From a virus (Duplodnaviria > Caudoviricetes), in the IMG/VR virus record IMGVR_UViG_3300032213_001974, positions 1-61,885 of that record: 61,885 bases of DNA; one strand, written 5' to 3'. The notes beneath the pieces are model-generated. The model was given only the letters and a program-made list of their open reading frames with translations. It had not been told where the DNA came from and searched no databases. Shown here piece after piece: positions 5,354 through 54,900 of the stretch. Numbering within the stretch: position 1 is the first letter of the stretch; each line of letters begins with the position of its first letter. A program made the position numbers and the translations under genes.

Positions 5354-5599
5354 ATGCAATTCGTAACTACCCCCATCCCGCCCTCGCGAGCAGGTCGCCG
5401 GAAAGGTTCCTACTCGGAACTCGGCAAGGCGATCCGTGGACTGGAAGTAGGACAAGCAGTCCTCGTTCCGGTCGCCGGGCCAGCCCATATCGGAAACATC
5501 CGCCGCCATGCGGCGAGAGTCGGAAGCGAAACCGGAAAGAAGTTCTCGGTGCGATTGGATGAAGCAGCTAACAAAGTAGGAGTCTGGAGGAAATCATGA
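5354..5599 (+). CDS. small putative DNA-binding protein
   Basis: PIPP..RRK..LEVGQ..KKFSVR..VWR pattern; stop overlaps next start. Confidence 0.6.
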   Translation: MQFVTTPIPPSRAGRRKGSYSELGKAIRGLEVGQAVLVPVAGPAHIGNIRRHAARVGSETGKKFSVRLDEAANKVGVWRKS

Positions 5600-32890: not shown

Positions 32891-35110
32891 TTAAAGCGCG
32901 GGCGGCTGCAACTTTGCGGCTTGCGCTGCGTCCTTGAGGGCGAGAGACTGCTGGAACTTCATCTCCTCGCGGCGCTCCTTGGCCTCTGCCTGCTGCTGGA
33001 GCAGCTGCATGCGGAGCTGGAGTTCCTGATTCTTGAGGAGCTGCTGCTGGAGCTTGGGGTCTTCCTGCGGCGCGGCCTGTCCTTCTTGGGCGGGGGCTTC
33101 GCGCTGCATCTTCTGCTGCTGGCGGAGGAGGTTGTTGAGGACCATCCCAGCGTTCGCCATGACCTCGCGGGCGCTGGCGGCGAAGGACTGCGCGGCTGGG
33201 TCTTCCGAGATAAACTCGGTGTGCGCCCCGCTGTGGTCGGTAATGAGCTGCATGACTGGCAGGACCTGCATCGGGTCCGCCTGCCCGGCGTCAAGGGCAG
33301 CCATGAACTGCTGAAGGAGCGGGAGGTGCGCGCGAAGATGGGTCTCGTGCATCTCGGTCGGGAGAACCTCAATCGGCCTGCCCATCTCCATGATGGCGTT
33401 CTCCAGATCGGCGGTCTTCGCCTCGCTGTTGGGCCGAGCAACGTCTGCCGGGCTTGCGTAGCGGGCGGCGCTGTCATACCCGACACGGGCGGCAACCCTA
33501 TCAAATACAAGGTTTTTCCGCCCGGTCTCGTCGAAAAGTGGCATCAGCTGCTCTAGGTCATTTAGAGCAGCCGAGCGCGCAGAGGCATTACCGGAACCGA
33601 TTGCCTTGACTGCGGTGGTTGATGCGAAGTCGATCGCCTTGACGATCTCGGCGGGAACACCGCGAGCTTCGCAACGATCGAAGAAATCTCTTACGGCGCG
33701 ATCATCGCGCGGGCCGTTGATCAGGCGCTTGACAACCTCGCGGAGCAGGCGTCTCCAGCTCGAATAGAAAAGGTTCAGGTTGCTGGCGGTCAGGCGGGTG
33801 GCGGCTTCAAGCTCGGCTTCCACCTGAAGCTTGGTGCGGTAAGGCGAGCCAGCTGCCGCACCGCGGGTCGTGAAGAAGTCCAAGTTCTGCGACATCTGCT
33901 CGGTCACATCGTTGATGACCGGGATGACTGCTTGGCTGATGTTCGGCATTGCCTTCTCGACCAGCTGGATGTTGGGCGAGAGGACCGTGTAAGGTCCGTA
34001 GTAGGTGAGGCTGAGTTCGTCCAGAGCGCGCTGGCTGTCCGGCTGGATCATCACCGAAGAGGCGAGCATCGCCCCATCAACCGCTTGGCTGCGCAGGCGA
34101 TTGCTGACTTGGACGTGGGGGAAAATCTTCTGGCCCAACCCGCGAACGCTGTGGTAGGTGCCGTTGGTTCCGACTCCGTTCGTGAAGAACACAAAGGCTT
34201 CTTCAGGGGCGGCGAAACGCTCAACCGCCTTGAACATGAACTCCTTGGGCTGGACTTCGGTGACGATGAAGTGGCTGACAGATCCCTTGAACTCGCGAAC
34301 GAGGACATGCAGGATCGGGACCGAGGTGGCTTGGATCCCGTTGTAGAGGTCGTTGTTCTTCAGCTGGGATTCGAGGCGTTCCCACTCGCCCATCGCTTGG
34401 CCCATGACGCTGCCAGTGGAAGCGGTCAGCATAGCGCGCTTGACTTCGGCGACATTCCATCCGAGCTGCTCGGCCTTCTTCTCGTCGCGGATGAAGCTGT
34501 ACAGCTCGTGGAGCATGTAGTTGCGGCGGAACACGGCGACCTCGACGCTGCTTTCGGAGGCGAGGGTTTGGCGAGGGATCAGGCAGTCGCCGAATCCGCA
34601 GACGCGGAAGCGCCAGTCCTGTGTGTTCTCGAAGTAGGTGATGCCAACACCGTGCATCACGAATTCGTTGACGAGGCGGAGGTAGCTGGTGTGGAACTCA
34701 GGCCAGTCGCGCAGGGATCGGGAAAGCTCTTCCGCGATTACTGTTTCGTCGTGCATCTTGTCGGCTTCTTCGCCAACAGTGCTCGTCACGTTGACGAGGG
34801 TTTGGACCGCGTTGATCAGGTCCACGTAGCCGGATACGGCGACATCGAGGTAGCGACCTGCTTCACCGAAGTTCAGGTTGGTGCGCTGGCCTTGGCCAGT
34901 GGAGCGGAGCAAGGCGGGGTCGTAGGGCGGGGCTCCGTCGAAGACGGCTTGCACACGGGCGCGGTTGACGCTGGAACGCTCGTCGGCTTTCTTGAGGACG
35001 GTGAAGATGGCGGCGGCGGAGGCTGCGTCCTTCAGGCGTGATTCGACCGGAGGCTTCCCCTTTTCATCGAGGTTCAGCAGTTCGAGTTCGTTCAGTCCGG
35101 TCATCGACAT
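32891..35110 (-). CDS. portal protein
   Basis: 739 aa, Gln-rich C-terminal coiled coil as in podoviral portals, head-module position; promoter TTGCAT-N18-GATACT-N7-ATG upstream. Confidence 0.75.
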   Translation of the reverse strand: MSMTGLNELELLNLDEKGKPPVESRLKDAASAAAIFTVLKKADERSSVNRARVQAVFDGAPPYDPALLRSTGQGQRTNLNFGEAGRYLDVAVSGYVDLINAVQTLVNVTSTVGEEADKMHDETVIAEELSRSLRDWPEFHTSYLRLVNEFVMHGVGITYFENTQDWRFRVCGFGDCLIPRQTLASESSVEVAVFRRNYMLHELYSFIRDEKKAEQLGWNVAEVKRAMLTASTGSVMGQAMGEWERLESQLKNNDLYNGIQATSVPILHVLVREFKGSVSHFIVTEVQPKEFMFKAVERFAAPEEAFVFFTNGVGTNGTYHSVRGLGQKIFPHVQVSNRLRSQAVDGAMLASSVMIQPDSQRALDELSLTYYGPYTVLSPNIQLVEKAMPNISQAVIPVINDVTEQMSQNLDFFTTRGAAAGSPYRTKLQVEAELEAATRLTASNLNLFYSSWRRLLREVVKRLINGPRDDRAVRDFFDRCEARGVPAEIVKAIDFASTTAVKAIGSGNASARSAALNDLEQLMPLFDETGRKNLVFDRVAARVGYDSAARYASPADVARPNSEAKTADLENAIMEMGRPIEVLPTEMHETHLRAHLPLLQQFMAALDAGQADPMQVLPVMQLITDHSGAHTEFISEDPAAQSFAASAREVMANAGMVLNNLLRQQQKMQREAPAQEGQAAPQEDPKLQQQLLKNQELQLRMQLLQQQAEAKERREEMKFQQSLALKDAAQAAKLQPPAL

Positions 35111-37988: not shown

Positions 37989-38022
37989 GTTGTCCTACCC
38001 TTATTAGAAAAATCTAATAAGA

Positions 38023-38051
38023 TGAATCACGAATCACGAATCACGAATCAC
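38023..38051. repeat. heptamer tandem repeat (GAATCAC)x4
   Basis: read directly, between two operator copies; further units at 38114-38129. Confidence 0.9.
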
Positions 38052-38128
38052 TTACCCTGATTCGTGGTTCCCTTTTCCCATTACTAGAAATACCTAATAA
38101 GCCTCGCCTTATTCACGAATCACGAATC

Positions 38129-38374
38129 ATGAAAACATCACACATCGCTGACCCTATCCTCGCCGCCGAACTCGAAGCAGACTTCCCGGACGTGGACTAT
38201 CTCGCCAAGGAAACCCTTGCTGCTTGCGAGGAAGACTTCGCCAACCCGGATCTTCCGTTTGAAGTCGTCGCCTTCCGCGAAAGCTGTTGCGACACTATCC
38301 GACACAACCTCGGCGACGGGGAAGACGGGGATTCCATCGCCCTCGCCGCAATCCGCCGTTTCTGGGATGTCTAA
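38129..38374 (+). CDS. acidic early protein
   Basis: 81 aa, flanked by operators. Confidence 0.65.
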   Translation: MKTSHIADPILAAELEADFPDVDYLAKETLAACEEDFANPDLPFEVVAFRESCCDTIRHNLGDGEDGDSIALAAIRRFWDV

Positions 38375-38426
38375 TCTCAACCATCCCTTATTAGGTTTTC
38401 CTGATAAGGGATTCTCCTATTCCACC

Positions 38427-38744
38427 ATGAAATCAAAACCATCGCCAGTCAAAGGCCAGAAGCTCTACCGTTTCTGGGGCAAGCTCGAAACCGGAACCTT
38501 TATCGAGGAGTCAATCGCCGAGGGCGCAAGCGCCCCGACGTGGCTTGTTCGAAACGACACCCGACGAATCCGCTGCGCTGTGGGCTCGTGGTTCCTGACA
38601 GAGAAGGAGGCTCTTCAAGATGAACTCGACGCTGTCAAGAGCAGCACCAAGTTTCAGCGGGAATCCATCGCCATCGCCAAGCAGCAGATCGCGGAGAACC
38701 GTGAGAACGCCAAGCAACTCCGTGCCCGTATCGCCAAACTCTAA
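38427..38744 (+). CDS. early hypothetical protein
   Basis: likely start ATG 38427 after operator. Confidence 0.65.
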   Translation: MKSKPSPVKGQKLYRFWGKLETGTFIEESIAEGASAPTWLVRNDTRRIRCAVGSWFLTEKEALQDELDAVKSSTKFQRESIAIAKQQIAENRENAKQLRARIAKL

Positions 38745-38765
38745 CCTTTATTAGATTTATCTAGT

Positions 38766-38948
38766 ATGAACCACCCGAAAGCAATCGACCCAAGGGACAG
38801 GCATACCGCACCTGATCCCAAGGCAGCCCGCCGGGAGATGAACCGGATCGCCCGCGCCAAGCGCGAGACTCCGGAAGAGTATGCCGCCCGCGTGATCCGC
38901 GATCTCGAGATAAAGGAGGAATACTCCGAAGACTACGAAGAACTGTGA
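38766..38948 (+). CDS. early hypothetical protein
   Basis: ATG overlaps operator. Confidence 0.6.
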   Translation: MNHPKAIDPRDRHTAPDPKAARREMNRIARAKRETPEEYAARVIRDLEIKEEYSEDYEEL

Positions 38949-39021
38949 CTCTTACTAGGTTTTTCTAAAAACAGAAGCTATCGCCCATAGCAGCAGAAAG
39001 CGGGGCACCCAATCAAACCAT

Positions 39022-39684
39022 ATGAAAACATACACGTCTAAAAAATTGAAGCAGATCCTCGCCGACCACGCTGCCTATCTCCGTGAACCGGCACAAGGCA
39101 AACGAGCCAACCTCTCCAGAGCCAACCTCTACGGAGCCGGCCTCTCCAGAGCCAACCTCTCCAGAGCCAACCTCTACGGAGCCGGCCTCTCCAGAGCCAA
39201 CCTCTACGGGGCCGACCTCTCCAGAGCCGGCCTCTCCAGAGCCAACCTCTCCGGAGCCGACCTCTCCAGAGCCGACCTCTCCGGAGCCAACCTCTCCGGA
39301 GCCAACCTCTCCGGAGCCGACCTCTCCGGAGCCGACCTCTCCAGAGCCGACCTCTCCGGAGCCAACCTCTCCGGAGCCAAGCTTCCGGTATTCCAGATCC
39401 CCCAAGGGGAAACACTTACCGTGTTCAAGAAACTTTCAAGTGGGGTCATAGCCAAGCTGCTGGTTCCTGCCGAGGCGCGCCGCACGGCTACTCCGATCGG
39501 GCGCAAGTGTCGGGCGGAGTGGGTAGAAGTGCTCGAAGGAACTGGTGTCTCCGGTCACGACAACACGACAGCTTACTCGCCCGGCACGATTGTCAGACCA
39601 GACAAGTATGACGATGACATCCGTGTGGAATGTACAAGCGGGATTCATTTCTTCCTGACTCGTGAGGAAGCCGAAGCCTACTGA
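39022..39684 (+). CDS. pentapeptide-repeat protein with C-terminal KCRA...GIHFF domain
   Basis: 18 A(N/D/G)L(S/Y)(G/R) units encoded by 15-bp repeats at 39106-39375. Confidence 0.92.
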
Positions 39685-40039
39685 TTCTCCCTGAACCAAA
39701 CTGAAATAAACCAATGAGCACCAACCGATTCATCCGCACGCTTCTCGCAGGCGGAACCCTCGCCATCCCGGAAGCGGACCCGCTTCATATTCTCCGGGAT
39801 CCTCGCCTATCCCGCTACACGCTGAAGACTCGTGGCAACGGTGGGATTGTGTATGTTTTCGTCATCCCTAACAACTGATCTCACCATGAACCAAACCACT
39901 GCCGCAGTTGACGCTGCACTCCGTTACCTTGCGTCACGCAAGGCGCTCCAAAAACTCGCCACTCCCTGCCCGGTGATCGGGCGGGATGTGGTTCTCTACA
40001 AACCAACCAAGTAACCCCTTATTAGATTTATCTATTATT

Positions 40040-40441
40040 ATGAAACAACACTACGAAAAAGTCATGCGGGATATCGAATCCCGCCTCGCCGTCACCAAGG
40101 AAGCCCTCGACCTGCTCGACAAGGAGCATGAGCAGCTCGCCGCTAAGCGTGTCCACTTGCAATCCGACAGAGGCATCATGGAAAGCGTGCTCTACGATCT
40201 GGAGCACATCTGCTACAACGCCGGATACCTGCGCGCACCAACCCCTGAACCAGAGTGGGAGTTCTTTCAAGAGGGTACCGATTACTTCTGGGCGTACCCC
40301 AAGGACGGCGTCGAAGGGTTGTTTTACGTCAGAGGCAACCCGTCGTGGGTTGACTCTGCGCAGACCAAAGACGAGACTATCCGCTATTCGGATTCGGCCC
40401 AGCGAATCACGAATCTCCCACCCGGAATCCCGATGCCATGA
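40040..40441 (+). CDS. early hypothetical protein
   Basis: ATG directly after operator; C-terminus resembles that of 40621..40998. Confidence 0.65.
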   Translation: MKQHYEKVMRDIESRLAVTKEALDLLDKEHEQLAAKRVHLQSDRGIMESVLYDLEHICYNAGYLRAPTPEPEWEFFQEGTDYFWAYPKDGVEGLFYVRGNPSWVDSAQTKDETIRYSDSAQRITNLPPGIPMP

Positions 40442-40620
40442 GCTACGCAATCGAAACCGCAATCCTCTTCTCCATCGGAACCCCTGCCGCGTTCATCGCC
40501 GGGGGTTTCCCGATTCGTCAGGCGTTCATCGCCGGGCTGCTCGCCCTCGTGATGCTTGCCTTGTTCTATCTAGCATCCTTCATCGGGTGCTGCCTGTAAT
40601 TAGAAATACCTAGTAAGACA

Positions 40621-40998
40621 ATGTGCAAACACTGCAAACCAAAAGAAGCCACGCCTGCGGCAGAAGCAGGCACCCCCGAGTACGCCGTCTATGCGGCACT
40701 CAAGAACATTGTGGATCGTCGGCTCCTGTCCCCATTGGATGACGCCAACGATGAAGCCATGGAAGCACTTGCCGCTTACGAGGAATCCCGAACCCGGAAT
40801 CCGGAATCTCCGACACCGGAGTTCAGGTATTTCACCCCCAAGATGGGGCGTGACTTCTTCTGGAAGTTTCGAACAATAGATGGGAAGGCATGGTGCCGCC
40901 CAGATATGGAGCCTTATTGGAGCGACTCGGTGTGCAAATTGAGAGACATGGACAACGACGAGACCATCGAAATCCCTAACCCCGATCAGGAACCATGA
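40621..40998 (+). CDS. early hypothetical protein
   Basis: ATG after operator; MCKHC start. Confidence 0.65.
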   Translation: MCKHCKPKEATPAAEAGTPEYAVYAALKNIVDRRLLSPLDDANDEAMEALAAYEESRTRNPESPTPEFRYFTPKMGRDFFWKFRTIDGKAWCRPDMEPYWSDSVCKLRDMDNDETIEIPNPDQEP

Positions 40999-41447
40999 AT
41001 CTGGAATACGGAAAGCGATACATTCGCAGGGATGGCGAGGTGACTGGGCCACTGGTAGTGGGTGGCTCCCACCGTGTGCCATTCGTAGACTCACTAACGG
41101 AACACGCGTATCCAGCAAACGGACGGTGGTTCATCTCATGCGATGAATCACGCCTCGACCTAGTGTCAGAATACAATAGCCCCTCCGGAGGCTCGCTATC
41201 CGGAAAACCTAATAAGATGAAAACCAACATTGAACTATCCTTGGTCGTTCTCGACCAGTCCGCCCCTGCCTCGCCAATCCTCGGTCGCGTCTACCGCAAC
41301 CGCCAAGGCGAGACAATTACCATCACCGCCAGCTCCACCTATGGAGGGTTGACCACCTTCCTCGGCAGCAATGGCTGCTGGTATAACAGCGACGGAACCC
41401 AGTGCGGCGCGCCTGTTGAGTCACGCCACACCCTCATTGAACTCTAA
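40995..41447 (+). CDS. early protein with two copies of a G..Y..R.G...NG...DL domain
   Basis: internal repeat; internal ATG at 41217 preceded by operator half-site. Confidence 0.65.
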   Translation: MNLEYGKRYIRRDGEVTGPLVVGGSHRVPFVDSLTEHAYPANGRWFISCDESRLDLVSEYNSPSGGSLSGKPNKMKTNIELSLVVLDQSAPASPILGRVYRNRQGETITITASSTYGGLTTFLGSNGCWYNSDGTQCGAPVESRHTLIEL

Positions 41448-41458
41448 CTCCTACGACA

Positions 41459-42055
41459 ATGACAAGACGACAATGGTTTGAAACTTTGCCCGCCCCCTAT
41501 GCCGAGCGGGCTATCAGGAACGCCGAAAGATACGGCGCGCCACTTGAGGCACCACAGGACAACCTGAGTGGGGCCATAGCCGGGTCCTTTGATTGGTCGG
41601 ATACCCCGGAAGGGAATATCTTCTGGAGAGACGTACATCGCGGAGAACTCCCACCCATCCCCGACGTAACGGAACCTGCGACAGCAGCTTCCGGGCTTCA
41701 GGTCCGCGTGGGTTACAGATACCGGACTCGGGATGGCATGACTACTGGCTACGTCGAACCATCCGGCTGCATAGGCCAACCGTTCCTGTACAGAGTCCCT
41801 GTCGATACCTACCACCTCGTTCGTTTCGTCAGCCCGAACGGAAACTGGATGGGCGATGGGTCACCAAGCGATTACGACCTAGTCGAAGAGATCCCCCCTA
41901 CCAAGAAGATGAAGTATCGCATCACTGAGGTGCGCCACTTCTTCCTCGAAGCAGAGGATGAGATCGAGGCAGACCGGATGTTCCGGGTTGCCAGCAACCC
42001 GGAGCGCAAGTTCCGGATGCACACAGAGGATCGCACGATCCATGATGACGCCTGA
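41459..42055 (+). CDS. early multi-module protein
   Basis: FDWSDTPEG..FW module plus a third G.RY.TRDG domain. Confidence 0.65.
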   Translation: MTRRQWFETLPAPYAERAIRNAERYGAPLEAPQDNLSGAIAGSFDWSDTPEGNIFWRDVHRGELPPIPDVTEPATAASGLQVRVGYRYRTRDGMTTGYVEPSGCIGQPFLYRVPVDTYHLVRFVSPNGNWMGDGSPSDYDLVEEIPPTKKMKYRITEVRHFFLEAEDEIEADRMFRVASNPERKFRMHTEDRTIHDDA

Positions 42056-42104
42056 CTTGTGGCAGAAACAGGAACTGACAACACTAAAAGAAAAAACTAA
42101 TAAG

Positions 42105-43427
42105 ATGAACGTTATTACATACACCACAACCGGAAAGCTTGTCGCCGTTGGTGACACAGTGGAGTTCGACTACCTCACGAAAAGAGAAGCCTACCCCGGC
42201 GACGTGATCGACGACAAGGTCTGCCTAGGCGGAACATGGATTCCGGTATCCGGAACCGTGATTGCCCATAACGGAATCCGGATTCCGTTGTCTGAAGCTG
42301 TTGAAATTACAATCGAAGGAGAAACCAAATACGCCATGAGCACAGAAACAATCGAGATTGATGGAGAGTTGTACCTGAAGCGGGATTGCTTCCGCCTTGT
42401 TGATCACTACCGTGATCGCCGCAGCGGCGGTGATTGGGTAGCGGAGGAACCGGAATACGGCTACGTCTACATGGAAGACTTCGACTGCTGGGCAAACGAC
42501 GAATTGGTTCACGACTGCTACGGCAATAGCTGTGCCTACTGGGACGAAGACGGCGAGTGGTGGCACGGCTGCTGGTACTCGTACGACTGGCTCAACGAGG
42601 AGACCTTCATCTGCGACTGCTGTGGTGACCGCTACAGCAATGAGGAATACGCTGAGGACGGCAACTGCAATAACTGTCACGAACCAGAGACCGGGTTGCG
42701 TTCTTACAACGACAAGACCAGTACGACCTTCCGCCCGGAGAAGGACATCCCCCTGAAGTTCGGCATCGAGCTGGAGGTGGAGTGCTACGACGCAGACGAA
42801 GGAGTCGAACTCTGCGAGTCCATCTTCCCGGACCAGTATGTGGTCTACAAGGAAGACGGTTCACTGGAAGAAGGGGGCTTCGAGATCGTGACCCGGCCCG
42901 ACGCACCCGAGGTTCACAAGCGTATCTTCGCCAAGTTCCTAGGCGACAACCGTGTCCGGCACAATTTGACCAGCTGGAACGGCGGTCGCTGCGGGGTCCA
43001 TATCCATGTCAGCCGCGCGCCGCTCAGTCCTCTGTGGATCGGTCGCATCCTTGTCATGATCAACTCGCCTTCCATGAAGTCGATTGTCGGCAAGGTGTCA
43101 GGTCGGTACAACACGACCTATGCCGAGATCAAGAACAAGAAGCTGATCCACGGCAAGAAGGGCAAGGACGAGCGCAAGTACGACGCAGTCAACAACTCGC
43201 CCCGCCACACGATCGAGTTCCGTCTGTTCCGTGGCACGCTGGTGAAGGAGTCCTTCCTGCGCTACATCGAGTTCGTCGAGTCGGTGCTGGCCTTCACCAG
43301 TCCCGCCACCACCAGCAACCGCGACGTGGCGGAGCCGAAAAAGTATCTTGACTTTGTGTCCTCGCGGCGCAAGGATTACAAGAACTTGTATGAGTTCCTC
43401 AAGGTCAAGTGCTTCTACGAAGCCTGA
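42105..43427 (+). CDS. putative amidoligase (COOH-NH2 ligase) 1 with zinc ribbon
   Basis: FGIELEV, KEDGSL..GFEIVT, CGVHIHVS, KYDAVN, TIEFRLFRGTL; CxCC/CxxC upstream; likely start 42105. Confidence 0.85.
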   Translation: MNVITYTTTGKLVAVGDTVEFDYLTKREAYPGDVIDDKVCLGGTWIPVSGTVIAHNGIRIPLSEAVEITIEGETKYAMSTETIEIDGELYLKRDCFRLVDHYRDRRSGGDWVAEEPEYGYVYMEDFDCWANDELVHDCYGNSCAYWDEDGEWWHGCWYSYDWLNEETFICDCCGDRYSNEEYAEDGNCNNCHEPETGLRSYNDKTSTTFRPEKDIPLKFGIELEVECYDADEGVELCESIFPDQYVVYKEDGSLEEGGFEIVTRPDAPEVHKRIFAKFLGDNRVRHNLTSWNGGRCGVHIHVSRAPLSPLWIGRILVMINSPSMKSIVGKVSGRYNTTYAEIKNKKLIHGKKGKDERKYDAVNNSPRHTIEFRLFRGTLVKESFLRYIEFVESVLAFTSPATTSNRDVAEPKKYLDFVSSRRKDYKNLYEFLKVKCFYEA

Positions 43428-43516
43428 TCCCTTACTAGAAATAACTGATAAGACGCTGCGGGTGCAGCAGAAAACACCCACCAACATCTGAACTAAAACA
43501 AACTACTACTACTACT

Positions 43517-44572
43517 ATGTGTCTTGCACTCTACAAACCTGCCGGTATCGCCCCTGATTGGAACGCCCTCGAAACGGGAATGATGTACAACTCAGACGGA
43601 GCTGGCTTCGCTGTCGCCGTCGACGGTCAACTCATTGTCGAGAAGGGCTTCTTCAAGTTCGAGCATTTCAAGAAAGCGCTCGAACCATTCGGCGAACACG
43701 CAGCGATCATCCACTTCCGCATCTCCACCCACGGCAAGGTCAATCAGGCCAACTGCCATCCGTTTGACATGCGCACCTTCGGTGACTCGGGCGGCACCCC
43801 GCTTGCTGTCATCCACAACGGCATGTTCTTCGAGGCGTCCAACGACAACCCGGCGTTCAGCGATACGTGGCACATCTGCCGTGACATCCTCCACCCGATG
43901 TGGCTCAATGACGAGGGCTACTTCAAGCGCCCCGAGTTCATTCAGATGGGCGACATGATGGTCGGTCGTTCCAACAAGCTGGTGTTCCTCAATGCCAATG
44001 GCGACTTCGCCATCTGGGGCGAGGGCAACGGTCACTGGAACGGTGGCGCGTGGTGGTCCAACCGCAGCTACGAGGACTGGTCTGTCGCCGATCCGCGTGG
44101 TGCTTATGGCTCGCGCAAGAAGCAGTCTTGGACAAGCGTCAAGAATCCAGATGGCTCTTGGAGCTACAAGGCTATCAAGGACGAGGCTGAGTCTCCACTT
44201 GTAACCGAGGACCGAAAGGTTATCGGGTATGCCCCAGCATCCAAGACCCTGTCCGAGCAGGACATCGACCTCATGGAAGAGGACGAGTGGAGAGACTACC
44301 TGTCTGCGAGGACACTCAAGGAATCCGAAGGTGGTTGGGGCGTGGACGACGAACCGGAAGAAGAGGATATCTACAACTTGATCCTTGCTGAGATCGGCGA
44401 GGAGAACGAGTGGATTATCGAAGAGCTGTCCGAGTGTGGCTACACGATCAGTGATCTGGAGATGATGGCTTCCCGCAAGGACGGAGTCGGAGCATTGAAG
44501 GACGAGCTGGAAAGCATCTACGGAATCGCAATCCCGAACAAGGAAACCCTGAAGCGTATCTCGCACGTATGA
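43517..44572 (+). CDS. class II (Ntn) glutamine amidotransferase with acidic tail
   Basis: Met-Cys start, N.DGAG, HFRISTHG, NCHPF, HNG, SDT. Confidence 0.9.
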   Translation: MCLALYKPAGIAPDWNALETGMMYNSDGAGFAVAVDGQLIVEKGFFKFEHFKKALEPFGEHAAIIHFRISTHGKVNQANCHPFDMRTFGDSGGTPLAVIHNGMFFEASNDNPAFSDTWHICRDILHPMWLNDEGYFKRPEFIQMGDMMVGRSNKLVFLNANGDFAIWGEGNGHWNGGAWWSNRSYEDWSVADPRGAYGSRKKQSWTSVKNPDGSWSYKAIKDEAESPLVTEDRKVIGYAPASKTLSEQDIDLMEEDEWRDYLSARTLKESEGGWGVDDEPEEEDIYNLILAEIGEENEWIIEELSECGYTISDLEMMASRKDGVGALKDELESIYGIAIPNKETLKRISHV

Positions 44573-44884
44573 AAACAATCCTAACCGCATGGCTGGTCAT
44601 CTGTGTCCTGCTGGTCCTCGTCACCGGGGACCTGCGGGCGCTGCTCCCAGCGGGTGTATCACTCGCCATTATCCTGATAACCAAAGCATGATCTATCACA
44701 TCATCCCAATCAACGACATCAAACCACACACTCCATCACCTGACTGTTTCTGCCAACCAGTTCAATCAGCAACGGAACCCTTCGTCTCCTTCGACCACAA
44801 TGCGGCGGATGGGCGAGAGGCTACCGAGCGACGAACCGGGAAAGCAGTGAAGGGAAAAGGTTGGACCATTACAAAACAGACACC

Positions 44885-45145
44885 ATGAACCTGAAAGGTA
44901 TACCAACTCCTGTAACCAATCGCAATAAAGGGCGCATCAACCTTCACTACGTATTAATCAAGGACCCCAAGGACGGGACTTTTGTTGGGGCCGACGTATG
45001 TGCTGACCTAGAACGACGCGCCGCAGTATGGCGATCTATGGCAGCGCGTGGGTACGCTATCGCCATGGGGGACGCTGACCCGCCTGACATTGATGACTAC
45101 ATCACCGACTACAACGAGCTGACACTACAACTTGACACACCATGA
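44885..45145 (+). CDS. early hypothetical protein
   Basis: ATGA overlaps with neighbours. Confidence 0.5.
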   Translation: MNLKGIPTPVTNRNKGRINLHYVLIKDPKDGTFVGADVCADLERRAAVWRSMAARGYAIAMGDADPPDIDDYITDYNELTLQLDTP

Positions 45146-45399
45146 AATACGAAACGCTAGACGCGATTGTCGTCACCACTCCAGACAAGCGGGAATCCCT
45201 GCGCCTCTCACTCACCGAATCCGTTGCCGGGCATCGGGCGCTGGTGTGGTCTTTCCCATTCGGGAAGACCACCTCGTTCGAAGCGGCACATGATCCGGAG
45301 AAAGCATCAGCTGTCAACTACGCCATGGCTTCCATGCTCGGGGATGACGGGTCCATGCTTGAGGATCTCGATACGTTCACCAACCACCACTGCAACTGA
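45142..45399 (+). CDS. early hypothetical protein
   Basis: ATGA overlap, operon position. Confidence 0.55.
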   Translation: MKYETLDAIVVTTPDKRESLRLSLTESVAGHRALVWSFPFGKTTSFEAAHDPEKASAVNYAMASMLGDDGSMLEDLDTFTNHHCN

Positions 45400-45400
45400 T

Positions 45401-47647
45401 ATGCCAGAAGAACCTACAATATCTCTACTCAGAGCGAGTGCGGTGTACGATAGGCTGATAGCGGATTCTTGCAATGCCATACTTACTGGCATTGGTAGTT
45501 CGTTTGCTAGCACATTGGAGCCACGGCAGCAAGAAATCCTCGACCCCGCACCTGTAATCAACTACGACGTATGGGAAGAGTTTGAATGCAATGACAATGC
45601 ATACTTTTATGCAGCCCATGTCCCTGTGGTATCTGACAGGTGCCTTGTGGTATCTGATGATGGCCCTATGGTATCTGACGAGTACCTTGTGGTATCTGAT
45701 GATGGCCCTACGGTCTATGATCCAAGTTTCAATGCAGTAAGAGCCGACACAACAACACCAGCAACCGCAATGCTAACTATGAAATACATATACGAATACG
45801 AAGGCCGACCAGTCATCATTGGTGACCGGATCGGGGAATACACAATCGCGGATTTCAGCGGAGACCTAGTTCGTGTAGAAGAAGTCTTGCCGGAATCTGT
45901 TCGTTACGAAAAGTACACAAACTGGGCGTGGGCGCGCCTTCTAGGCGTCATACCAAACCCTATCCCGGAATCCGGAATCTTTAATCGCATTACAGGTGAG
46001 AGGATTTCCTGCGAAGCTGGGACTGTACTGCCTGACGGAAGTACCATCCAGTGGTTTGACGAGAGTAGCAAAAACATCTACTGCGGAATCATGAATCATT
46101 CCGGACTCGTAAGTAGCACGTTCACTGCTGACTCTCTGACCAAGATGGGCTTGGAGATCCGCCACAACATGACTGCGGATATTATCAAGCAGGTACCACG
46201 ATTCCTGCGCAAGGGAGTTACCTGTATCAAGGTGGGTAGATCGTTCGTGCCAGCCGAGCAGGCAGTCTGGAGTCGCGGAGAGAAGAAATACATTCGCCTC
46301 GACAACGCAGTGCAGATCGACCTGACTTGGATGTCCAAGGATAACCCGAAGCTGGTCCAGTTTCTGGATGGGAGTTACGGGATGCCGGGTTCCGGGTACG
46401 CGATTACCGGAGGTCCGAACGCCGGGCAATTCGTTCGTAACCGGGCAGAGCGTGCGCAATGCGGCGATAGGTGGTACCCAGTCGTAGAACTGATTCCGGT
46501 TTACTACCGGGATGTTGAGCCTTGGGATTACCGCTTGACTGAGCCTGTCAATGACGACGGCTTTGAAAAGGTCAATGGTGAGTGGTGCTTGGCTGGTTAC
46601 TCGGTAACCCTAGCAGACGGGTCCGTGTGCGCTCGCCACCGCGCGTACCGGGTGCTCACTGGTTTTCGACCAGAGCCGCTAAGCGGTTGCACGGAAGAGT
46701 GGATTCTTCGCGAGACACTTGAAGACGTGGCGCGGTACTGCCCGGAGTGTGGGGCTTGGTCATTGCTCTCCTTTATGGCGGGTAGCGAGTGCAGGAGCTG
46801 CGCCGCCCGTAGTCGCACCCGCATCCGCAACTACTCGAACAACTACGCCAATAGTCTGATTCCTGAAGAGGACATCCCGATCAAGTTCGGCATCGAACTC
46901 GAAGTGGGGACCGACAAGGGAACCGGCATTGAACAGTGTGCGACCACCATGGCGGACGCACTCAGCGATCGTGAGGACTTTGCGAATTACGGAGTCTTCA
47001 AGATGGACGGGTCGATTCAGTGTGGCGGATTCGAGGTGGTGACAAGACCGGACTCGCCTGCCGTCCACAAGCGGATCTGGTCCAAGGCTCTCGCCGTGCC
47101 GAAAGTCCGCGAGCAGATGTCCAGCTGGAGCAACCGTTACTGCGGCATGCACATCCACGTCAGCCGCGCACCGCTAAGTACTCTGTGGATCGGGCGTATC
47201 TTGGTGACGATCAACTCCCCGGACATGTCCTCCTTGGTGACGGCAGTCGCCGGGCGCGGGTCAATGAATTACGCGCAGCGTGAAGACAAGCGCCTAACCA
47301 GTGGCAAGAGCCGCTACGGCGACAGGTACGAAGCGGTCAACACTACTGGGCAACATACCATCGAGTTCCGGATCTTCCGTGGCACGTTGGACCCCAAGGG
47401 GTTTGTCCGCAACGTGGAGTTCGTTGAAGCGGTGCTCGACTTCACCCGCCCTGCGAGCACCAGCCTGCGGGACATCGGCAAGGTCGAGAGCTTCGTGGAG
47501 TTCATCAAGAAGTCCCGCAAGGCTTACCCAGTCTTGTTCGACTTCCTGACCACCAAGGGATTCATCGACGACCCTAAAGTGGAATACAGGGCGGGCAAGA
47601 AATCAGTGCGTGTCCAGCGACATATGGATGAGCCTACCCCGTTCTAA
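45401..47647 (+). CDS. putative amidoligase (COOH-NH2 ligase) 2 with long N-terminal extension and zinc ribbon
   Basis: FGIELEV, KMDGSI..GFEVVT, CGMHIHVS, RYEAVN, TIEFRIFRGTL; CPEC...CRSC; start uncertain (45401, 45770 or 45779). Confidence 0.85.
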   Translation: MPEEPTISLLRASAVYDRLIADSCNAILTGIGSSFASTLEPRQQEILDPAPVINYDVWEEFECNDNAYFYAAHVPVVSDRCLVVSDDGPMVSDEYLVVSDDGPTVYDPSFNAVRADTTTPATAMLTMKYIYEYEGRPVIIGDRIGEYTIADFSGDLVRVEEVLPESVRYEKYTNWAWARLLGVIPNPIPESGIFNRITGERISCEAGTVLPDGSTIQWFDESSKNIYCGIMNHSGLVSSTFTADSLTKMGLEIRHNMTADIIKQVPRFLRKGVTCIKVGRSFVPAEQAVWSRGEKKYIRLDNAVQIDLTWMSKDNPKLVQFLDGSYGMPGSGYAITGGPNAGQFVRNRAERAQCGDRWYPVVELIPVYYRDVEPWDYRLTEPVNDDGFEKVNGEWCLAGYSVTLADGSVCARHRAYRVLTGFRPEPLSGCTEEWILRETLEDVARYCPECGAWSLLSFMAGSECRSCAARSRTRIRNYSNNYANSLIPEEDIPIKFGIELEVGTDKGTGIEQCATTMADALSDREDFANYGVFKMDGSIQCGGFEVVTRPDSPAVHKRIWSKALAVPKVREQMSSWSNRYCGMHIHVSRAPLSTLWIGRILVTINSPDMSSLVTAVAGRGSMNYAQREDKRLTSGKSRYGDRYEAVNTTGQHTIEFRIFRGTLDPKGFVRNVEFVEAVLDFTRPASTSLRDIGKVESFVEFIKKSRKAYPVLFDFLTTKGFIDDPKVEYRAGKKSVRVQRHMDEPTPF
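45620..45724. repeat. 21-bp tandem repeat x5 with 42-bp higher-order period
   Basis: core C(C/T)TRTGGTATCTGA; units 2 and 4 differ at one base. Confidence 0.9.
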
Positions 47648-48076: not shown

Positions 48077-48826
48077 ATGAAACACGCACAAGAACTGAAG
48101 ACCCTACTCGATTCCGGAATCACGATTCAGGAAGTCGCATCCCGGTTGGGGATCAAGGTAAGCTACGCTAACATGATCCGAAGCAGGATGAAGATCGAAG
48201 CCCCTGCCTGCTCCGAAACCAGCAAGGCCCGCCGCATCATGGACATCGCCAAGTTGATGGGCGAGGGCAAGTCGGACTGGGAAATCGCGAACGCCTTGGA
48301 CATCTCCGCCCAGAGGTTGGCCTACCTCCAGCTGGGCGGTGGGTTGCGTGAACCACGCAAGCGTGGACGAAAGCCCAACAGCGCACAGCGCCCGGAGCAG
48401 ATCAAGAAACTGCTGGGCGAGGGCAAGTCGGCACCTGAAGTAGCCAAGGAACTCGGCATCAAACCGAACACCATCTATCAGGTGTGCAGCCGCAACAAGA
48501 TTCCGATCCCCAAGTCCTCGTCAGCGAGGAAGAAAGCCCTCGATGCGGAGATCATCCGCCTGCGGGAACTTGGAATCAATGACGCGGGAGTGGCGCACAT
48601 CACTGGCCTCAACCCGGATCTGCTCTACACCTACCAGCCGAAGGGCAGAGGCCGACCCAAGAACAGCAACGATGAACTGGTGATCGAGGCGCTACGTCGA
48701 GGCGATAGCGTGGACGAGATCAGTCTTTCGTTGAACCTGATGCCGGGAACGGTGATCAATTATGGGCGAAGACACGGGTTCTCGTTCAAGAAGAGTTATG
48801 TCCTTAAAGAAGGAGGTGTGGCATGA
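48077..48826 (+). CDS. multi-HTH protein with AT-hook-like motifs
   Basis: four to five L..G.S..EIA..L.I units; RKRGRKP and KGRGRPK. Confidence 0.75.
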   Translation: MKHAQELKTLLDSGITIQEVASRLGIKVSYANMIRSRMKIEAPACSETSKARRIMDIAKLMGEGKSDWEIANALDISAQRLAYLQLGGGLREPRKRGRKPNSAQRPEQIKKLLGEGKSAPEVAKELGIKPNTIYQVCSRNKIPIPKSSSARKKALDAEIIRLRELGINDAGVAHITGLNPDLLYTYQPKGRGRPKNSNDELVIEALRRGDSVDEISLSLNLMPGTVINYGRRHGFSFKKSYVLKEGGVA

Positions 48827-48911: not shown

Positions 48912-51900
48912 TCACGGCTTCAGCACTTGAACTGCCGGGTACTTGAGCGACTCCGCTACGATCAGTTTCAGGCGACCTGCGCCATTGCCATCCGCCTTCT
49001 GGCCTGCGTCGTAGTAATCCTTGAGGTCATCGCGGGATGGAGTCCAGCGGTCAGTGACGTTATTCAGCGCCTTATTCAGTCGGTCCTTGGAGAATCCGGC
49101 CTCATTACTTGTGCTGAACAGCTGACCTCGGGTCATGCCCATATTCTCGTATGACCGCATCATTTCAGCAGCACGCCCGAATGCAGCGACTCGCGCGCGG
49201 TTGGCTTTCTGAACTGCTTCGGTAATCTGGTCTCCATCAAGCGGAGATCGGGATTTCAGGATTCCAGTTGCTCGGCGGGACTGCGAGTAGGTCAAGGCTG
49301 CACTGCGGATCGCCCGATTGTGGTAGGTGCTGACATCTTCAACGCGGGGGCGAACTCCGAGCAGTTCTCCAGCGAAGATCTCAAGGCGATTGCTGGCCTT
49401 GTCGTCCTCGGTTACTGGCTTCTTAGAACCCTTCTCGCCCGACATCAAGTTCTCCACGAAGCTAGCTACGGGTGGTTTGTACCCTTGGCTTAGCGCATAT
49501 GTAGTGCGGGTAATCAGCGCCTCAAGGAAAGGAGTGTCTCCCGTGGTGATCGGATTGCCCTTCTCGTCCTTGTTGTTGAGTGATTCCATCGCCGCTCCAA
49601 TCGCGATTTGGTCGCCAATCAGCTGGCCAGTCACCCATTTCGCGGCTACCGCGGGTATCTCCGCTTCCTTACCAGTGCGAATCAGTTCATATGACCGCAT
49701 GATCAGGTCAGTGTAGATCGCAGTCGGGTTGATGAAGGTCATGTCCAGCGAGCGGATCTTGTCACCTACCTGCGTGAAGTAAACCGTGTTGCCCTTCTGC
49801 CAGTCGGCGAGGCCCTCGCGCAGGGCTTGGTCGCGGCGAAGCTCGTCGCCGTTGCGCGGCAGGAAGTAGTTCAAGATGCTGTCCGCTGTTACGTCCTCGT
49901 CGTCTCCGAAAGCGGCGGCGAAAGCGAGGCTGACTACGCCTGCCACAGTAAGCGGCATCAGCGTGAGCGTGGTCAGGAAACCAGCAAGGCGCTGGTTTCC
50001 TCGCTTGCGGATGACCTCGTTATCGCTGGCGCGTTCCTCGCTGGAGAGCTTAACTGTCTCGATCATGACGCGGGCGACTTCCGCCTTGAAGCGTGCGAAC
50101 GGCGCGATCAGGGAACCGAGGCCGGACTTGGTGAAGCTGGTGACTACCGGGAAAACCTGCGAGTGAGTCTGCGTGGTGCGCAGGACTTTGGCCGCGGCTT
50201 CCTTCTTGAGGCGGGCTTCCGTCCAAGTCTCATCACCTTTGTAGGCTTCACGCAGGACTGCAAGTTCGTTCTCGAACATACCGATGCGGAGGTTGGACGA
50301 GATCGTGTTGTTCAAGTTCGCACCGAAGGCGAGGGTCTTGGGCACGACCCCAACGGCTTTCTTCCAGTAGGCTTCGCCCTGTGCGGCGAGCGCGCTGCGC
50401 TCCACCTTGTTGAGTGCGGCTTCCGCGTCCGTGGCGAGGCCAGCAATCTGATCGCGCAGCGCCTGCGTGCTGGACTCGTCACCGAGTACGCCGAGTTCGA
50501 TAAGCTCGCGGATGTACGCCTCGTGCTCCCCCGGAGTCTTGGCGAAAGACGATCCCTTCGACTGGAACCACCGCTTAAAGTTGAGTGGGTTTAGCAGTAC
50601 ACCTTGGAGCGGAGCAAAGAATGCAAAATCGGACACGGCATTTCTGGTGTAGAATCCGACCGACAGCAGTGTCTTTGCCGCCATCGCGCCTCCCGCAGCT
50701 GCCCGCAGGACCTTGATACCGTTACGCACCGCCTGATCGGCAGTGTCTTCCAGCTCGGGGGAGCTTTTTGAGAAGATCGTATCGAAGGCTTTCTTGAACT
50801 CTGGTGGGCCATAAGCTCCATCGAGCGGTGCGTCGTACGCTGGGTTCGCCCCGGAGAGTTTGACGTAGCCCTTCTGGTTGGCGACGACCGGGTCCTTGGT
50901 GATCCATCCGCCGTCAAGCCCAGCCTCAAGCGTGCTTGTCAGCAGGTCCTGATTGGCGGCGAGCTTGGAGACGCTGATCAGCGAACGAGTTGCCGCTTCA
51001 ATAGGGTCGGTGATTTCTCCGAGAGCGGCGCGTAGCCAAGCCGGGAGTTCGCTCTTCTCCATGAAGCGACCAAGCTCCTGACGCAGCTCATTGGCGCGAG
51101 CAGAGCGGACTACTGGTTCCGTAGCTCCTTCCTCGAACAACGCCTTCTCGACATCCACTGCGAGAATTTGCCCAGTGGCGAGACTCGCCGCGTTTTTGTC
51201 CATGCTGGCGACGAACTCGTCGAACATGACTTGAGCCCGAGCAGGCGTGTCACGCAGGACCGCAGCCTTGATCTCTGCTGGCGAGAACTCCGGATGCTCC
51301 TTCTTGATTTCAGCTTCCAGTGTCTTGCTGGCCTTGTTGGTGTAGTGCCTGAGTGCGTCGTCGCGGATCTTCTGGAAGTCGATCATGGAGTTGCCGACCT
51401 GCGCGATACCAGCGGACTTCAGCAGCTTGGTCCAGCCAGTCTGCGTAAAGGCATAGTAGGAGCGTGTCAGGTAGATCCCCATGTTGGCGTCGATCACGGC
51501 GCGGATATCATCCGGCGTGAACGGGTTGGTGGCGATCTTTCCGGAAGCCTTGTCGATTGCGGCGCGTGCGTCCTCGATTACCTTGACTACCTTCGGTGGC
51601 AGCTTGGCTTTCGCTTCGGCGGCTGCGGCGCGGGCCTTGTCGGCGATCAGCTGATATTCCTTGACCACGCGACTCTTATGGCGTGCAACCGAATCAGCGA
51701 TCCCCTTATCATGAATCAGCTTGTCCGATTCAGTCTTTGCGGAATCCTCGAATGTCTTCTCAATGTTCGCGATCTCGCCGTCCAGCACCGCTTCGATCTG
51801 GGCCATGCGCGCCTTGGAGATCACCAGTCCGGTGTCGCCCATCGCGTTGCGGACCAGTGTCAGGTTCTCATCGTTGATGACTCCGGACTTGATGAACGCC

Positions 51901-54900
51901 TGCATCTGGTTGTTGAACTGTTCGGCGATGCGGGCTACCAGACGCAGCTGGCTGTCACGACTTCCAACCAGCGCCTTGACGGAGCTTGGCAGGTCGCCCT
52001 TGAACAGGCGGCTGAACTTGCCACCCACGTCGTAGGAGTTGTCGCCGTAGTTCTTCACAGGCAGGCTGAAGCGTCCGGTGACATCGTCACGGCGAAGCAC
52101 GTTGAGCTGCTCCTCGAAACCAGTCGGCTCGGCAGGCGACACCAACTGGTCATAGACGCGGGTGGCACGCTGCACTGAAGCGGCGATCTGGCTGTCTTCG
52201 ATACCGCGGATGCGGGTAGTCAGCTTGGCAATGAACGCTTCGAGCGCACGCAGCATGCGGGAAAGTATGCCGGGGTTGCGGCGATAGAACGAGTAGTCGC
52301 TTTCGCTGATGAAACCGCTGCGGGCCTTCTCGATTTCCATGCGGACGAACTCGTCAGCGAGTTCGCGGATGCCGAGCTTTCCGGAGGCGCGGTCTTCCCG
52401 GATCCTTTCGAACCGGGCAGCTGCGTCCGGGATACTCGCCGAGTAGTAGCGATCCGCTACCTCCCACAGCTTGGCAGCTGGGAGGGTGGTGGCGATGTAG
52501 TCGATGTCCGCATCGCTCAGGGTGCTGAACGCGGCGAGGTGGGCGATCTCGTGGTTGACGGCAGCACGGACAAAGCGGCGGGCGTTGAAGTCATCCAGTC
52601 CAGCAATCGCGTTGGCGAGCAGCTGTGGATTCACGAACACGGTATCAGGAGAGCTGGGTCGGGCGACCATCATTCCTCTCGCTGATTCGTCATACTGAAT
52701 CGTGATTCCGGATGGGGATTCTTGGGTGAGCAGCTTGGACATCTCGTCCTGCTCGACCGTGGTGGCTGTGATTTCTGGAAGCTCCCTGCTTGTCTGCTGA
52801 TCCCGGGACATCGCCACATCTTCGCTGATGCGTGTGCCATAGGGGCGCATGTTCGCCATGCCAACCAGCTTGGTCAGATCGTTCAGCGCCTTGGAGAGCT
52901 GGTCGGTCGGGCTGCCGGTCAGGAAGCGGGTGAGGAAGTCGAGGAAGCGGCGGAAGAATCCACGCTCCGGAGCGGTTTCGTAGATCGCCTTCTGGAAGTC
53001 CGGGGAAGTGAAAGCGTAGCTGACAAATTCCTCAAGTGATGCGAGACCTGCGAGCACCTGCTGCGAGTTGCCGTTGTAGGCGGACTTGATCCGCCCACGC
53101 AAGGCGTCGAGTTTCGCCACCAGCGCACGGGCACCGGCGGAGTCCGGGCTCTTGATCACCGAGACGGTGACCGCGTGGAGCATCTCGTGAACCAGAACGT
53201 CCGCCAGCCCGCGACCGTTGGAAGCGGCGAGGTTGAGGAAGATCGTATTGGATTCAGGAGAGTACTTGCCTGCCCACCCGGTATTGGGGAGGTTGACGAT
53301 CTCGATGTTCGCCTTGGCTAGAATATCGCGCTTGGCCTTGAGGAGCGAAGCAACTTCCTTGAGGCGAAGCGGAACCTTGTCGAGGGCTTCGATGGCGGAC
53401 AGGATGCTACCGCCCCGGAGGCCGAGGTCTTCCGCGTCCAGCAGGTTGTTGCGGAGGTTGGTTGCCGGATCGCTTGGAACCGCAGCAGATTCAAAGACTG
53501 CCTTGATGTCCTCGCCCACCTTGAAGTTGCGCTTCTTGGAGGCCAGCAAGGTCTGAAGCGTGTCACCGAAACGACGGAACTGTGCCTGCTTCTCCTGCGT
53601 GTAGCGGTTGTCGATCTCGCCAGCGCGGGCCGCGGCAAGCATGGTGCGGAGAACCGGGCGGGTGTATGTTGCGCCAGAGGGCAGCGAAATGACGGAGCTG
53701 TCGCTGTCCTTAGCTTTGATGTCTCCGGACTCTACAAGGCTACGAAGTTCTGCTGCCTTCTTCTTGTACTTCCTGCGGGTAGAAGCAGAGTAATCCGGAT
53801 TAAGTGCGCGCTCGTTAAGCTCCGCGATGATGCTTCGTGCGTCTTCTAGGCTGACGAACTGACTGGGAAAAACTTCATAGCGCCCCGCTTTGGATTCTAC
53901 AGATACTCCTTGCGGCTCTTCTGGAGTGAAGAACCTTTCAGGAACTGGGCGTGAGACTACGGTGCGACTTGGCCCCGGTTCGGATGGGAAGAGGTACTTC
54001 TGCATCTCCACCATCTCGGGCGAGAGAGTCTTGGACTTAGCTGCGCGATCCGCTTCACGCTTGGAAGCAAGGTCCTGCTTCAGTCCGATCTGCGCAGCTT
54101 GTTCGCGAACAAAGGCTTCGAAGTCGGCGATTGGCTTGAGCGTGGCTTCCACGACGCGGCGCATTTCCAGACCCTTGTTGGAGAGCAGGAACTGCTTGGC
54201 GCGCTGGGCTGCGGCGCGCATGTCTGCGGACAACTCGTTGCGGAATACGTCAATGAGCGCTTCTGTTGGCAGTGACTCTGCTTTGGTTACACCAAACGTA
54301 GTAGCGGCACGCTCGAATGCTTTGCGAACCTGTGGATTGGAGTCGATGTTGCTAGTTACCGCAGTGATTACTTCATCTAGCGAGGTTGGCTTTTCAGACT
54401 CTTCAATCACGTCATAGATAGTGGCCACTGCTTCTACAGCAGCGTTGTCTACACCCATGTAGAGGGGCCTCGCAATAGCTGCGTACATACTCGCCGCAAG
54501 TTCATCAGCGTCTACCTGTGAAAGGATAGCTGGAGTATCCGCGGCTTCAACACGAGCAGTCGGATCAATGAAGCTGCCTTGCTCCTTGATACGGTTGAAG
54601 TACTTCTTCTCGACTTGGGCGATAGTAGTCTTCAGCGAATTCGGGCGGCGGATCGTGGTACCATCCGCCAGCTTCTTGAAGAAGCGGGTGTTTACCCCTT
54701 CGTCTGTGCCGTTGAGTTCTGACACAAGACGATCGGCGTAGACCTTCATCGCCTGATCGGCGTTGAGCTTGGTCTTGCCCTTGGTGCTGAAGGTCTTGAT
54801 AAGCTGCGCCTGAGCGGCAGGGCCTACCTGCTTCAGGAGAAACTTGACTGGGTCCCGGCCAGCAGCGAGTTGTTCTTCGACCCGGATAGCCAAGGCAAAC

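Follow-up and report, generated by a model that had tools for sequence, protein, structure and literature searches.

The ligase block

The stretch of DNA considered here (the window) is the 61,885-base IMG/VR virus record IMGVR_UViG_3300032213_001974 (Caudoviricetes), which is complete and has direct terminal repeats. Between positions 42,105 and 47,647 of its plus strand lie two paralogous amidoligase genes, ligA and ligB, and between these a gene for a class II glutamine amidotransferase (GATase)-like protein and two small conserved genes, s99 and s85. The block is a lineage-specific five-gene variant of a familiar, uncharacterised phage module. An original prediction, made from the letters of the sequence, had singled out the two ligases and the GATase, and these stand; s99 and s85, the age of the duplication and a Glu-to-Gly change that marks ligB and its kin were absent from it. 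The genes are as follows.

42105–43427, plus strand: ligA, an A-type amidoligase of 440 amino acids (AlphaFold2 model, VIA fold matches, phrog_16683 at E 6.9e-25)
43517–44572, plus strand: class II (N-terminal nucleophile, Ntn) GATase-like protein of 351 amino acids (invariant residues, profile, phrog_25883 at E 1.4e-17)
44589–44888, plus strand: s99, a small conserved protein (phrog_2864 at E 1.6e-11)
44861–45145, plus strand: s94, an open reading frame (ORF) of 94 amino acids for which jackhmmer returns the window's own copies only
45142–45399, plus strand: s85, a protein of 85 amino acids whose stop at 45399 abuts the ligB ATG at 45401
45401 or 45779 to 47647, plus strand: ligB, a B-type amidoligase of 748 amino acids (from 45401) or 622 (from 45779) (AlphaFold2 model, VIA)

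Two of the starts call for comment. The ligA ORF spans 41958–43427, and the start at 42105 is backed by relatives, whose proteins open at the aligned Met, and by a palindrome, considered below, that ends right at the ATG. The ligB ORF spans 45167–47647; the database gene call and the gene calls of relatives begin at 45779 (MKYIYEYEG), while an alternative in-frame start at 45401 (MPEEP) lies immediately behind the stop codon of the gene before it, and 45401–45779 stays open in two diverged relatives. The probable start is 45401. Inside the possible N-terminal extension, at 45618–45722, are four to five 21-nucleotide tandem repeats of VVSD-type heptads, absent from two related contigs, L005 and L006.

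Two ligases from one duplication

That the two ligases are paralogues is borne out by 136 identities in 302 aligned columns (45%; BLASTP E 2e-80), by the presence in both of the peptides KFGIELEV and HIHVSRAPLS.LWIGRILV.INSP, which had been quoted as shared, and by a CxxC...CxxC zinc ribbon ahead of each catalytic domain; the whole record holds exactly these two ligase copies. In LigA residues 1 to ~168 are beta-hairpin repeats, 170–191 the zinc ribbon and 213–440 a minimal carboxylate-amine ligase domain of the glutamine synthetase (GS)/YbdK fold, and in LigB an orphan N-terminal region is followed by the ribbon (~46739–46801) and by a GS/YbdK-fold catalytic domain from ~46871.

The AlphaFold2 models have a pLDDT (predicted local distance difference test) of 94.4 for LigA and 89.8 for LigB, and in both the C-terminal ~225 residues match GS, YbdK, GCL, Dop and PafA at Z 9–11.8, well above unrelated rows. 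For LigA 213–440 the VIA score is Z 11.5 to 1tt4_A (YbdK-like; root-mean-square deviation 3.8, 211 residues aligned) and 11.2 to 8pvg_A (Escherichia coli GS), and for LigB residues 365–612 it is Z 11.8 to 1tt4_A. Foldseek with either model gives E about 4e-5, and the fold matches in BFVD include proteins of Tesla and of Pseudomonas phage tf. Judged from these models, each ligase is a zinc ribbon followed by a minimal GS/YbdK-fold ligase domain, with ATP-dependent chemistry predicted. Against the curated cut-off of 22 bits for Pfam Amidoligase_2 (PF12224), LigB passes with 27.1 bits and LigA, with 21.3, is 0.7 short, so the hidden Markov model check that had been proposed comes out in favour of one ligase and just below threshold for the other; at E<=0.001 the model matches 16 of 26 family ligases, the best at 6.8e-8. 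A ligase profile run against PDB sequences returned only zinc-finger noise and no solved close relative. In Pfam the window proteins thus score only marginally, and the enzyme assignments made here are drawn from fold, profile search and family-level scans.

The long N-terminal regions, described from the outset as different, are indeed unrelated to each other. Both AlphaFold2 models show a series of short beta-hairpins ahead of the ribbon, and since equivalent positions in distant members of the family carry extra CxxC pairs, the array looks like a set of degenerate zinc knuckles. Searched against 1.84 billion representatives, the N-terminal 314 amino acids of LigB matched nothing beyond their own cluster and a single coiled-coil protein, the latter judged spurious, and the same segment had no Pfam match and no usable ESM Atlas match.

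In a FastTree phylogeny built from 106 catalytic domains, a clade of 39 rows (support 100) divides into an A clade of 19 rows that includes LigA (support 96) and a B clade of 20 rows that includes LigB (support 99), and at least seven A/B pairs, one member from each clade, come from contigs of equal length and are taken as neighbours on one contig. These sequences point to a single old duplication, with A and B retained together down to ~50% identity. There are 79 catalytic-domain columns conserved at >=80% in both clades, and in 77 of them the two clades have the same residue; this, together with the joint retention, is the ground for predicting that both copies are functional.

What of the active site? 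Eighteen columns are invariant in the 106 members and kept in both copies: G220, E222, E224, D251, S253, E260, C296, G297, H299, H301, R334, N363, E371, R373 and F375 (LigA numbering), and three ribbon cysteines, the remaining one of the four being conserved at >=90%. They include the residues of a superfamily-type catalytic sheet (an ExE strand, a later Glu, HxH and ExR), namely E222, E224, E260, H299, H301, R334, E371 and R373, and by analogy we take these acidic, His and Arg residues to bind metal and ATP. Neither paralogue, then, is without catalytic residues, and the description of all motifs as intact holds for these columns. It fails at one further position. The Glu at LigA position 226, present in 19/19 members of the A clade and in 88% of 67 other members, is Gly in 20/20 members of the B clade, the B-type motif being GIELEVG where the A-type reads GIELEVE; the position is one of the two exceptions among the 79 conserved columns. 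On the first catalytic strand (219–226 in the model) it comes two residues behind E224, and strand alternation would put the E226 side chain on the same face as both invariant glutamates. In E. coli YbdK the aligned position is Gln, and E226 is therefore family-specific rather than universally catalytic; the hhalign comparison of the ligase profile with E. coli YbdK, in which the GIELE first strand aligns, covers 22 columns (first strand only) at a probability of 3% and was used solely for the residue at that position. The B-type Gly sits in a conserved motif of its own, G-[TC]-D-[KR]-G, which suggests a change of function rather than decay.

The GATase-like protein

The protein encoded between the ligases starts MCLALYK, with the Cys2 nucleophile directly after the initiator Met, and with a single exception the 75 GATase ORFs listed open with Met/Val-Cys. 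Its glutaminase domain (~residues 1–205) is followed by an acidic, poorly conserved C-terminal extension. Invariant in 48 homologues are C2, R68, H100-N101-G102 and S115-D116-T117. Among PDB sequences the best matches to the GATase profile are the glutaminase domain of GlmS (E 4.3e-10) and PurF (1.2e-6), stand-alone YafJ-like proteins ranking behind. Its HfRmaThG and HNG motifs align with their counterparts in GlmS; the aligned part stops short of D116, which on the strength of the motif we take to be the glutamine-site Asp. The class II identity first proposed is thus upheld by invariant Cys2, R68, N101-G102 and D116 and by the GlmS match. In the Pfam check the window protein itself falls short, with 18.3 bits against a GATase_4 cut-off of 23; among the 48 homologues 30 match GATase_4, and 11 GATase_6, at E<=0.001. 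By its residues the protein is a divergent class II Ntn enzyme with an intact glutamine (or gamma-glutamyl) site, and activity is predicted. Predictions of a LigA–GATase complex scored 0.43, 0.00 and 0.00 and are counted neither way.

A common two-gene cassette

The ligase profile has 383 relatives in viral contigs, and the best 80 of the 383, representing 79 distinct loci, were surveyed for their surroundings. A GATase adjoins the ligase on the same strand in 77 of the 79, the two misses ending at the locus edge, and does so in 67 of 80 loci of a second, independent metagenome set. In the 13 metagenome misses the ligase is mostly at or near a contig end, and in two of them (L100 and L152) it is 160–340 nucleotides in, too short a distance for a GATase on that side. 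The neighbourhood survey that had been proposed as a check thus shows the two genes to be coupled. From ligase stop to GATase start the median gap is 18 nucleotides over 93 distinct junctions, with 73 of the 93 at <=30; in the window it is 89. Clustering of the neighbouring ORFs showed no third family common across the loci. Terminase and primase-helicase, the next most frequent neighbours, were set aside as partners, their presence reflecting phage relatedness. With adjacency near-universal, the gap tight and no third family shared, the pair is a self-contained two-gene cassette.

It is also a cassette with some history. Mycobacterium phage Marvin and its relatives (gp105/106), the OM43 phages MEP401 and MEP402, Caudoviricetes sp. 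MW202733 and Pseudomonas phage tf all carry an annotated Amidoligase_2 gene and class II GATase gene, adjacent and on the same strand; the window ligase and GATase are homologous to these, with tblastn E values down to 4e-28 and 2e-20, and both match the same Marvin-type and MEP401/402 records. The window differs from them in having two ligases that arose by ancient duplication, two conserved small genes, long orphan N-termini and the Glu-to-Gly change in LigB. Since the pair is widespread and already annotated in named phages, the suggestion that this was the window's best candidate for an undescribed enzymatic system has to be given up. No biochemical study of an amidoligase–GATase pair was found in the literature searched. 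Two papers treat the pair's function as unexplored, citing Iyer et al. for the prediction made in 2009 (PMC10580990, PMC3517423), and in the former the OM43 phage pair is classed among auxiliary metabolic genes (PMC10580990). A report on directed evolution of a Pseudomonas phage lists missense changes in both genes (PMC11450229).

In other phage lineages the module has been multiplied otherwise (loci L129, L133, L104, L107 and L161/L162), as tandem ligase–ligase–GATase, as two full ligase–GATase pairs or as ligase–GATase–x–ligase. Several ligases with a single GATase occur in L129 (606–3426) and L133 (4340–7752), in the tandem order, and in L161/L162, in the last of these orders.

The small genes

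The order ligA–GATase–s99–s85–ligB is found in 4/4 of the distinct two-ligase contigs examined, namely the window, L005, L006 and L084 (L085 is a near copy of L084, and L001 was cut from the window). The core of s99 begins at an internal Met at 44688 and has the motifs H..P.ND...H.....C.C.P and HN..DGRE; in the same position s99 is 67–71% identical in L005/L006 and 36% in L084. Across the close relatives L005/L006 no gene of the block is better conserved than s85, at 89–91% identity against 49–73% for the ligases; in L084 it is 39% identical, and it always abuts the ligB start. Its extreme C-terminus varies (HHCN, HHCNWDA, KHTTP). No Pfam or PHROG match was found for s85, and in the ESM Atlas it scores 0.76, under the usable level; in a large protein collection it falls into seven clusters, two of them on contigs equal in length to two-ligase or ligA-type contigs. 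Neither s85 nor s99 was found in the single-ligase loci examined, which places both outside the core mechanism. The 94-residue ORF s94 is possibly outside the system altogether.

The early block and the rest of the phage genome

A palindrome of the type TTATTAG-N7-CTAATAA (family D2) occurs in eight copies within 37998–43460, starting at 37998, 38078, 38745, 40016, 40594, 41193, 42081 and 43429. It is AU-rich, with a consensus of about CTTATTAG-N7-CTAATAAG, and several copies end 0–3 nucleotides upstream of an ATG, at the expected position of a ribosome-binding site. Two copies belong to the ligase block.

42081–42112, plus strand: palindrome copy ending in CTAATAAG then ATG, immediately upstream of the ligA start
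43429–43460, plus strand: palindrome copy within the 89-nucleotide gap between ligA and the GATase gene

With eight copies, including those before ligA and the GATase gene, the operator-marked early block of the original prediction is real; the palindrome may serve the early genes of the phage as promoter, operator or translational hairpin. The ligase block belongs to the early, host-takeover region, its early position being marked by this shared palindrome. It sits in a plus-strand stretch, ~36.7–48.8 kb, of mostly small genes of no known function. One of these (39022–39684, plus strand), made up of about seventeen 15-nucleotide tandem repeats, encodes a fusion of a pentapeptide-repeat domain (E 4.6e-37) with DUF5758. 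DNA mimicry is frequent among pentapeptide proteins, and this one is a candidate anti-defence gene. The early block ends with a gene (48077–48826, plus strand) that contains a 50-nucleotide direct repeat; its product, of 249 amino acids, has several helix-turn-helix units (HTH_7 E 1e-12) and is kept by relatives at 51–52% identity.

Pfam and PHROG scans identify a replication block on the plus strand, with helicase, DUF2800 nuclease, family A DNA polymerase, DUF5906 primase-helicase and RNA ligase; 5596–6198 and 6420–7052, both on the plus strand, are the RNA ligase (Pfam E 3.4e-14, phrog_548) and, near it, a phrog_3704 protein annotated 'ferredoxin'. The structural genes are on the minus strand. 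The phage is remote from those in culture: megablast found no near-identical DNA in cultured phages, and their DNA polymerases are at most ~25% identical to that of the window. The portal-region protein (32891–35110) had no match among phages, and distant relatives are on only four contigs of metagenome-assembled genomes. On the minus strand 48912–60149 is a single ORF of 3745 amino acids, possibly a giant virion or injected protein; it has zero Pfam matches and its translation has two HExxH-like motifs (VHEMLHA and NHEIAHL). Another minus-strand ORF, 61039–61884, beside the terminal repeat, runs off the window end and starts with at least 12 Gly-Thr-Thr triplets.

Relation to known systems

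Several known systems resemble the block in part. For the phiEco32-type extended amidoligase systems a role in modifying the host envelope or host proteins was proposed (Iyer et al. 2009, as cited in PMC10580990). These phage systems are built on the two core enzyme families seen in the window, and differ in that the window record is without a match to ATP-grasp_4 or GGACT. Neither model matched anywhere in the complete record, while the controls matched 13/14 genomes for ATP-grasp_4 and 9/14 for GGACT. The earlier statement that no ATP-grasp or cyclotransferase partner is visible thus holds for these two families, other ATP-grasp models not having been searched. Searches for COOH-NH2_lig (PF14395), the second ligase family of such systems, and for Tet_JBP (PF12851), whose controls matched nowhere, carry no weight.

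To the YbdK/GCS2 ligases and GS the likeness is in the catalytic fold (Z 11.5–11.8 to 1tt4_A and 11.2–11.4 to E. coli GS); identity is ~13%, the window domain is far smaller (~225 residues), and where GS has its N-terminal domain the window ligases have a zinc ribbon and hairpin array. PafA and Dop share the GS-like fold (Z 9.0–10.0) and act on a protein substrate, but their Z scores are below those of YbdK and GS, s85 is without a Pup-like conserved C-terminus, and the partner in the window is a Cys-Ntn enzyme rather than a proteasome. MurT/GatD is a working analogy only: GatD is a class I GATase, MurT has the Mur-ligase fold, and there is no homology to either window protein. Its interest lies in being a two-protein, ATP- and glutamine-dependent system that converts a carboxylate to an amide from co-transcribed genes (PMC3267633).

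What the block may do

The explanation tentatively favoured is that, early in infection, the cassette amidates two different carboxylate targets with glutamine as the ammonia source. Each ligase would turn a carboxylate into an acyl-phosphate with ATP, and the Cys2 enzyme would hydrolyse glutamine and hand the ammonia to the ligase, with conversion of the carboxylate to a carboxamide; ligase and GATase together would be a heteromeric glutamine-dependent amidotransferase in the manner of MurT/GatD. With near-identical catalytic domains and unrelated N-terminal regions, the two copies most likely bring the same chemistry to two targets, to which the differing hairpin/zinc-ribbon regions would steer it. 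A target may be a host protein, an envelope precursor or a metabolite, and the B-type ligase may take a different nucleophile or use s85 as adaptor or substrate.

Several considerations weigh against glutamine-dependent amidation of two targets. The class II GATase-fold also fits a gamma-glutamyl amidohydrolase, and the conserved residues can suit both roles. All 20 B-clade members lack the Glu of position 226. Two or three small genes part ligB from the GATase gene, and LigB may make no use of the GATase. Ligase–GATase fusions were absent from 516 longer candidates, though this is weak evidence.

Instead of amidating, might the ligases tag? They could join glutamate, an amino acid or a peptide, possibly s85, to target amines, and the Ntn enzyme, acting as a gamma-glutamyl or isopeptide amidohydrolase, would then process the tag or take it off. 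EgtA/EgtC, PuuA/PuuD and PafA/Dop would be parallels. This is the rather less likely course, though one to be taken seriously: the ligase fold matches Dop (Z 9.6–10.0) and PafA (9.0–9.8) about as well as it does several glutamine synthetases, the B-type motif GIELEVG ends in Gly, like that of PafA, the highly conserved s85 translationally abuts ligB, and the Ntn glutamine-site residues would bind a gamma-glutamyl group equally well. However, the C-terminus of s85, unlike that of Pup- or ubiquitin-type tags, is not conserved, the single-ligase loci examined manage without s85 and s99, and the GATase profile is nearest to the true amidotransferase domains of GlmS and PurF, ahead of YafJ-like proteins. 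A special form of tagging, for which the chances seem slim, is a viral analogue of pupylation, in which the B-type ligase would conjugate s85 to host proteins (or use it as a targeting adaptor), the Ntn enzyme would mature or deconjugate it, and the A-type ligase would keep the ancestral amidating activity. If true, the five-gene block would be a pupylation analogue built from different parts.

Small-molecule metabolism is unlikely, though less so than such an analogue. The pair would here make or remodel a soluble metabolite: it might, for instance, amidate a cofactor or precursor, or neutralise a host signal that bears a carboxylate, with the two ligases serving two steps or two substrates. 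The nearest solved folds are indeed those of small-molecule enzymes (YbdK, GS, GCL, GmaS, naphthylamine GS), and the listing of the OM43 phage pair as auxiliary metabolic genes accords with this (PMC10580990); but long variable zinc-ribbon/hairpin arrays are unusual ahead of the catalytic domain in such enzymes, and no further pathway genes are conserved nearby. It is a good deal less probable that the ligases and GATase decorate a modified base in DNA or nucleotide hypermodification. Amidoligase and amidotransferase genes in other phages reportedly co-occur with 5-HMUDK/aGPT-Pplase clusters, and a role for them in thymidine hypermodification has been proposed (PMC8989533); zinc ribbons could bind nucleic acid, and 8012–8578 has a weak match (22.3 bits against a cut-off of 25) to DUF1599, 'nucleotide modification associated'. 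What makes it unlikely is that the complete record has no Thymidylat_synt match (the control matched 10/14 genomes), that Pfam/PHROG scans of the replication block show no kinase or pyrophosphorylase family, aGPT-Pplase models not having been searched, and that 24 kb separate the cassette, part of the early block, from the polymerase. Least probable of all is that LigB is a non-catalytic paralogue, regulatory or scaffolding, with only LigA working with the GATase. Its gene is not adjacent to that of the GATase, and all 20 of the B-clade members lack the family-typical Glu on the metal-binding strand, but E. coli YbdK also does without a Glu there, the Gly that replaces it is part of a conserved new motif, all 18 family-invariant residues are retained and, with 77/79 conserved columns shared with the A clade, a decayed LigB is unlikely.

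Perspective

The finding by itself adds a variant, not a new principle. Nevertheless the ligase–GATase pair is among the most widespread phage enzyme modules that have no assigned substrate, and the A/B clade offers a natural experiment: catalytic cores that are nearly the same, different targeting regions, one active-site difference, a shared GATase and two small proteins. The two-ligase clade is well suited to finding the substrate, and it could settle whether the Ntn enzyme is an ammonia donor or cleaves gamma-glutamyl bonds.

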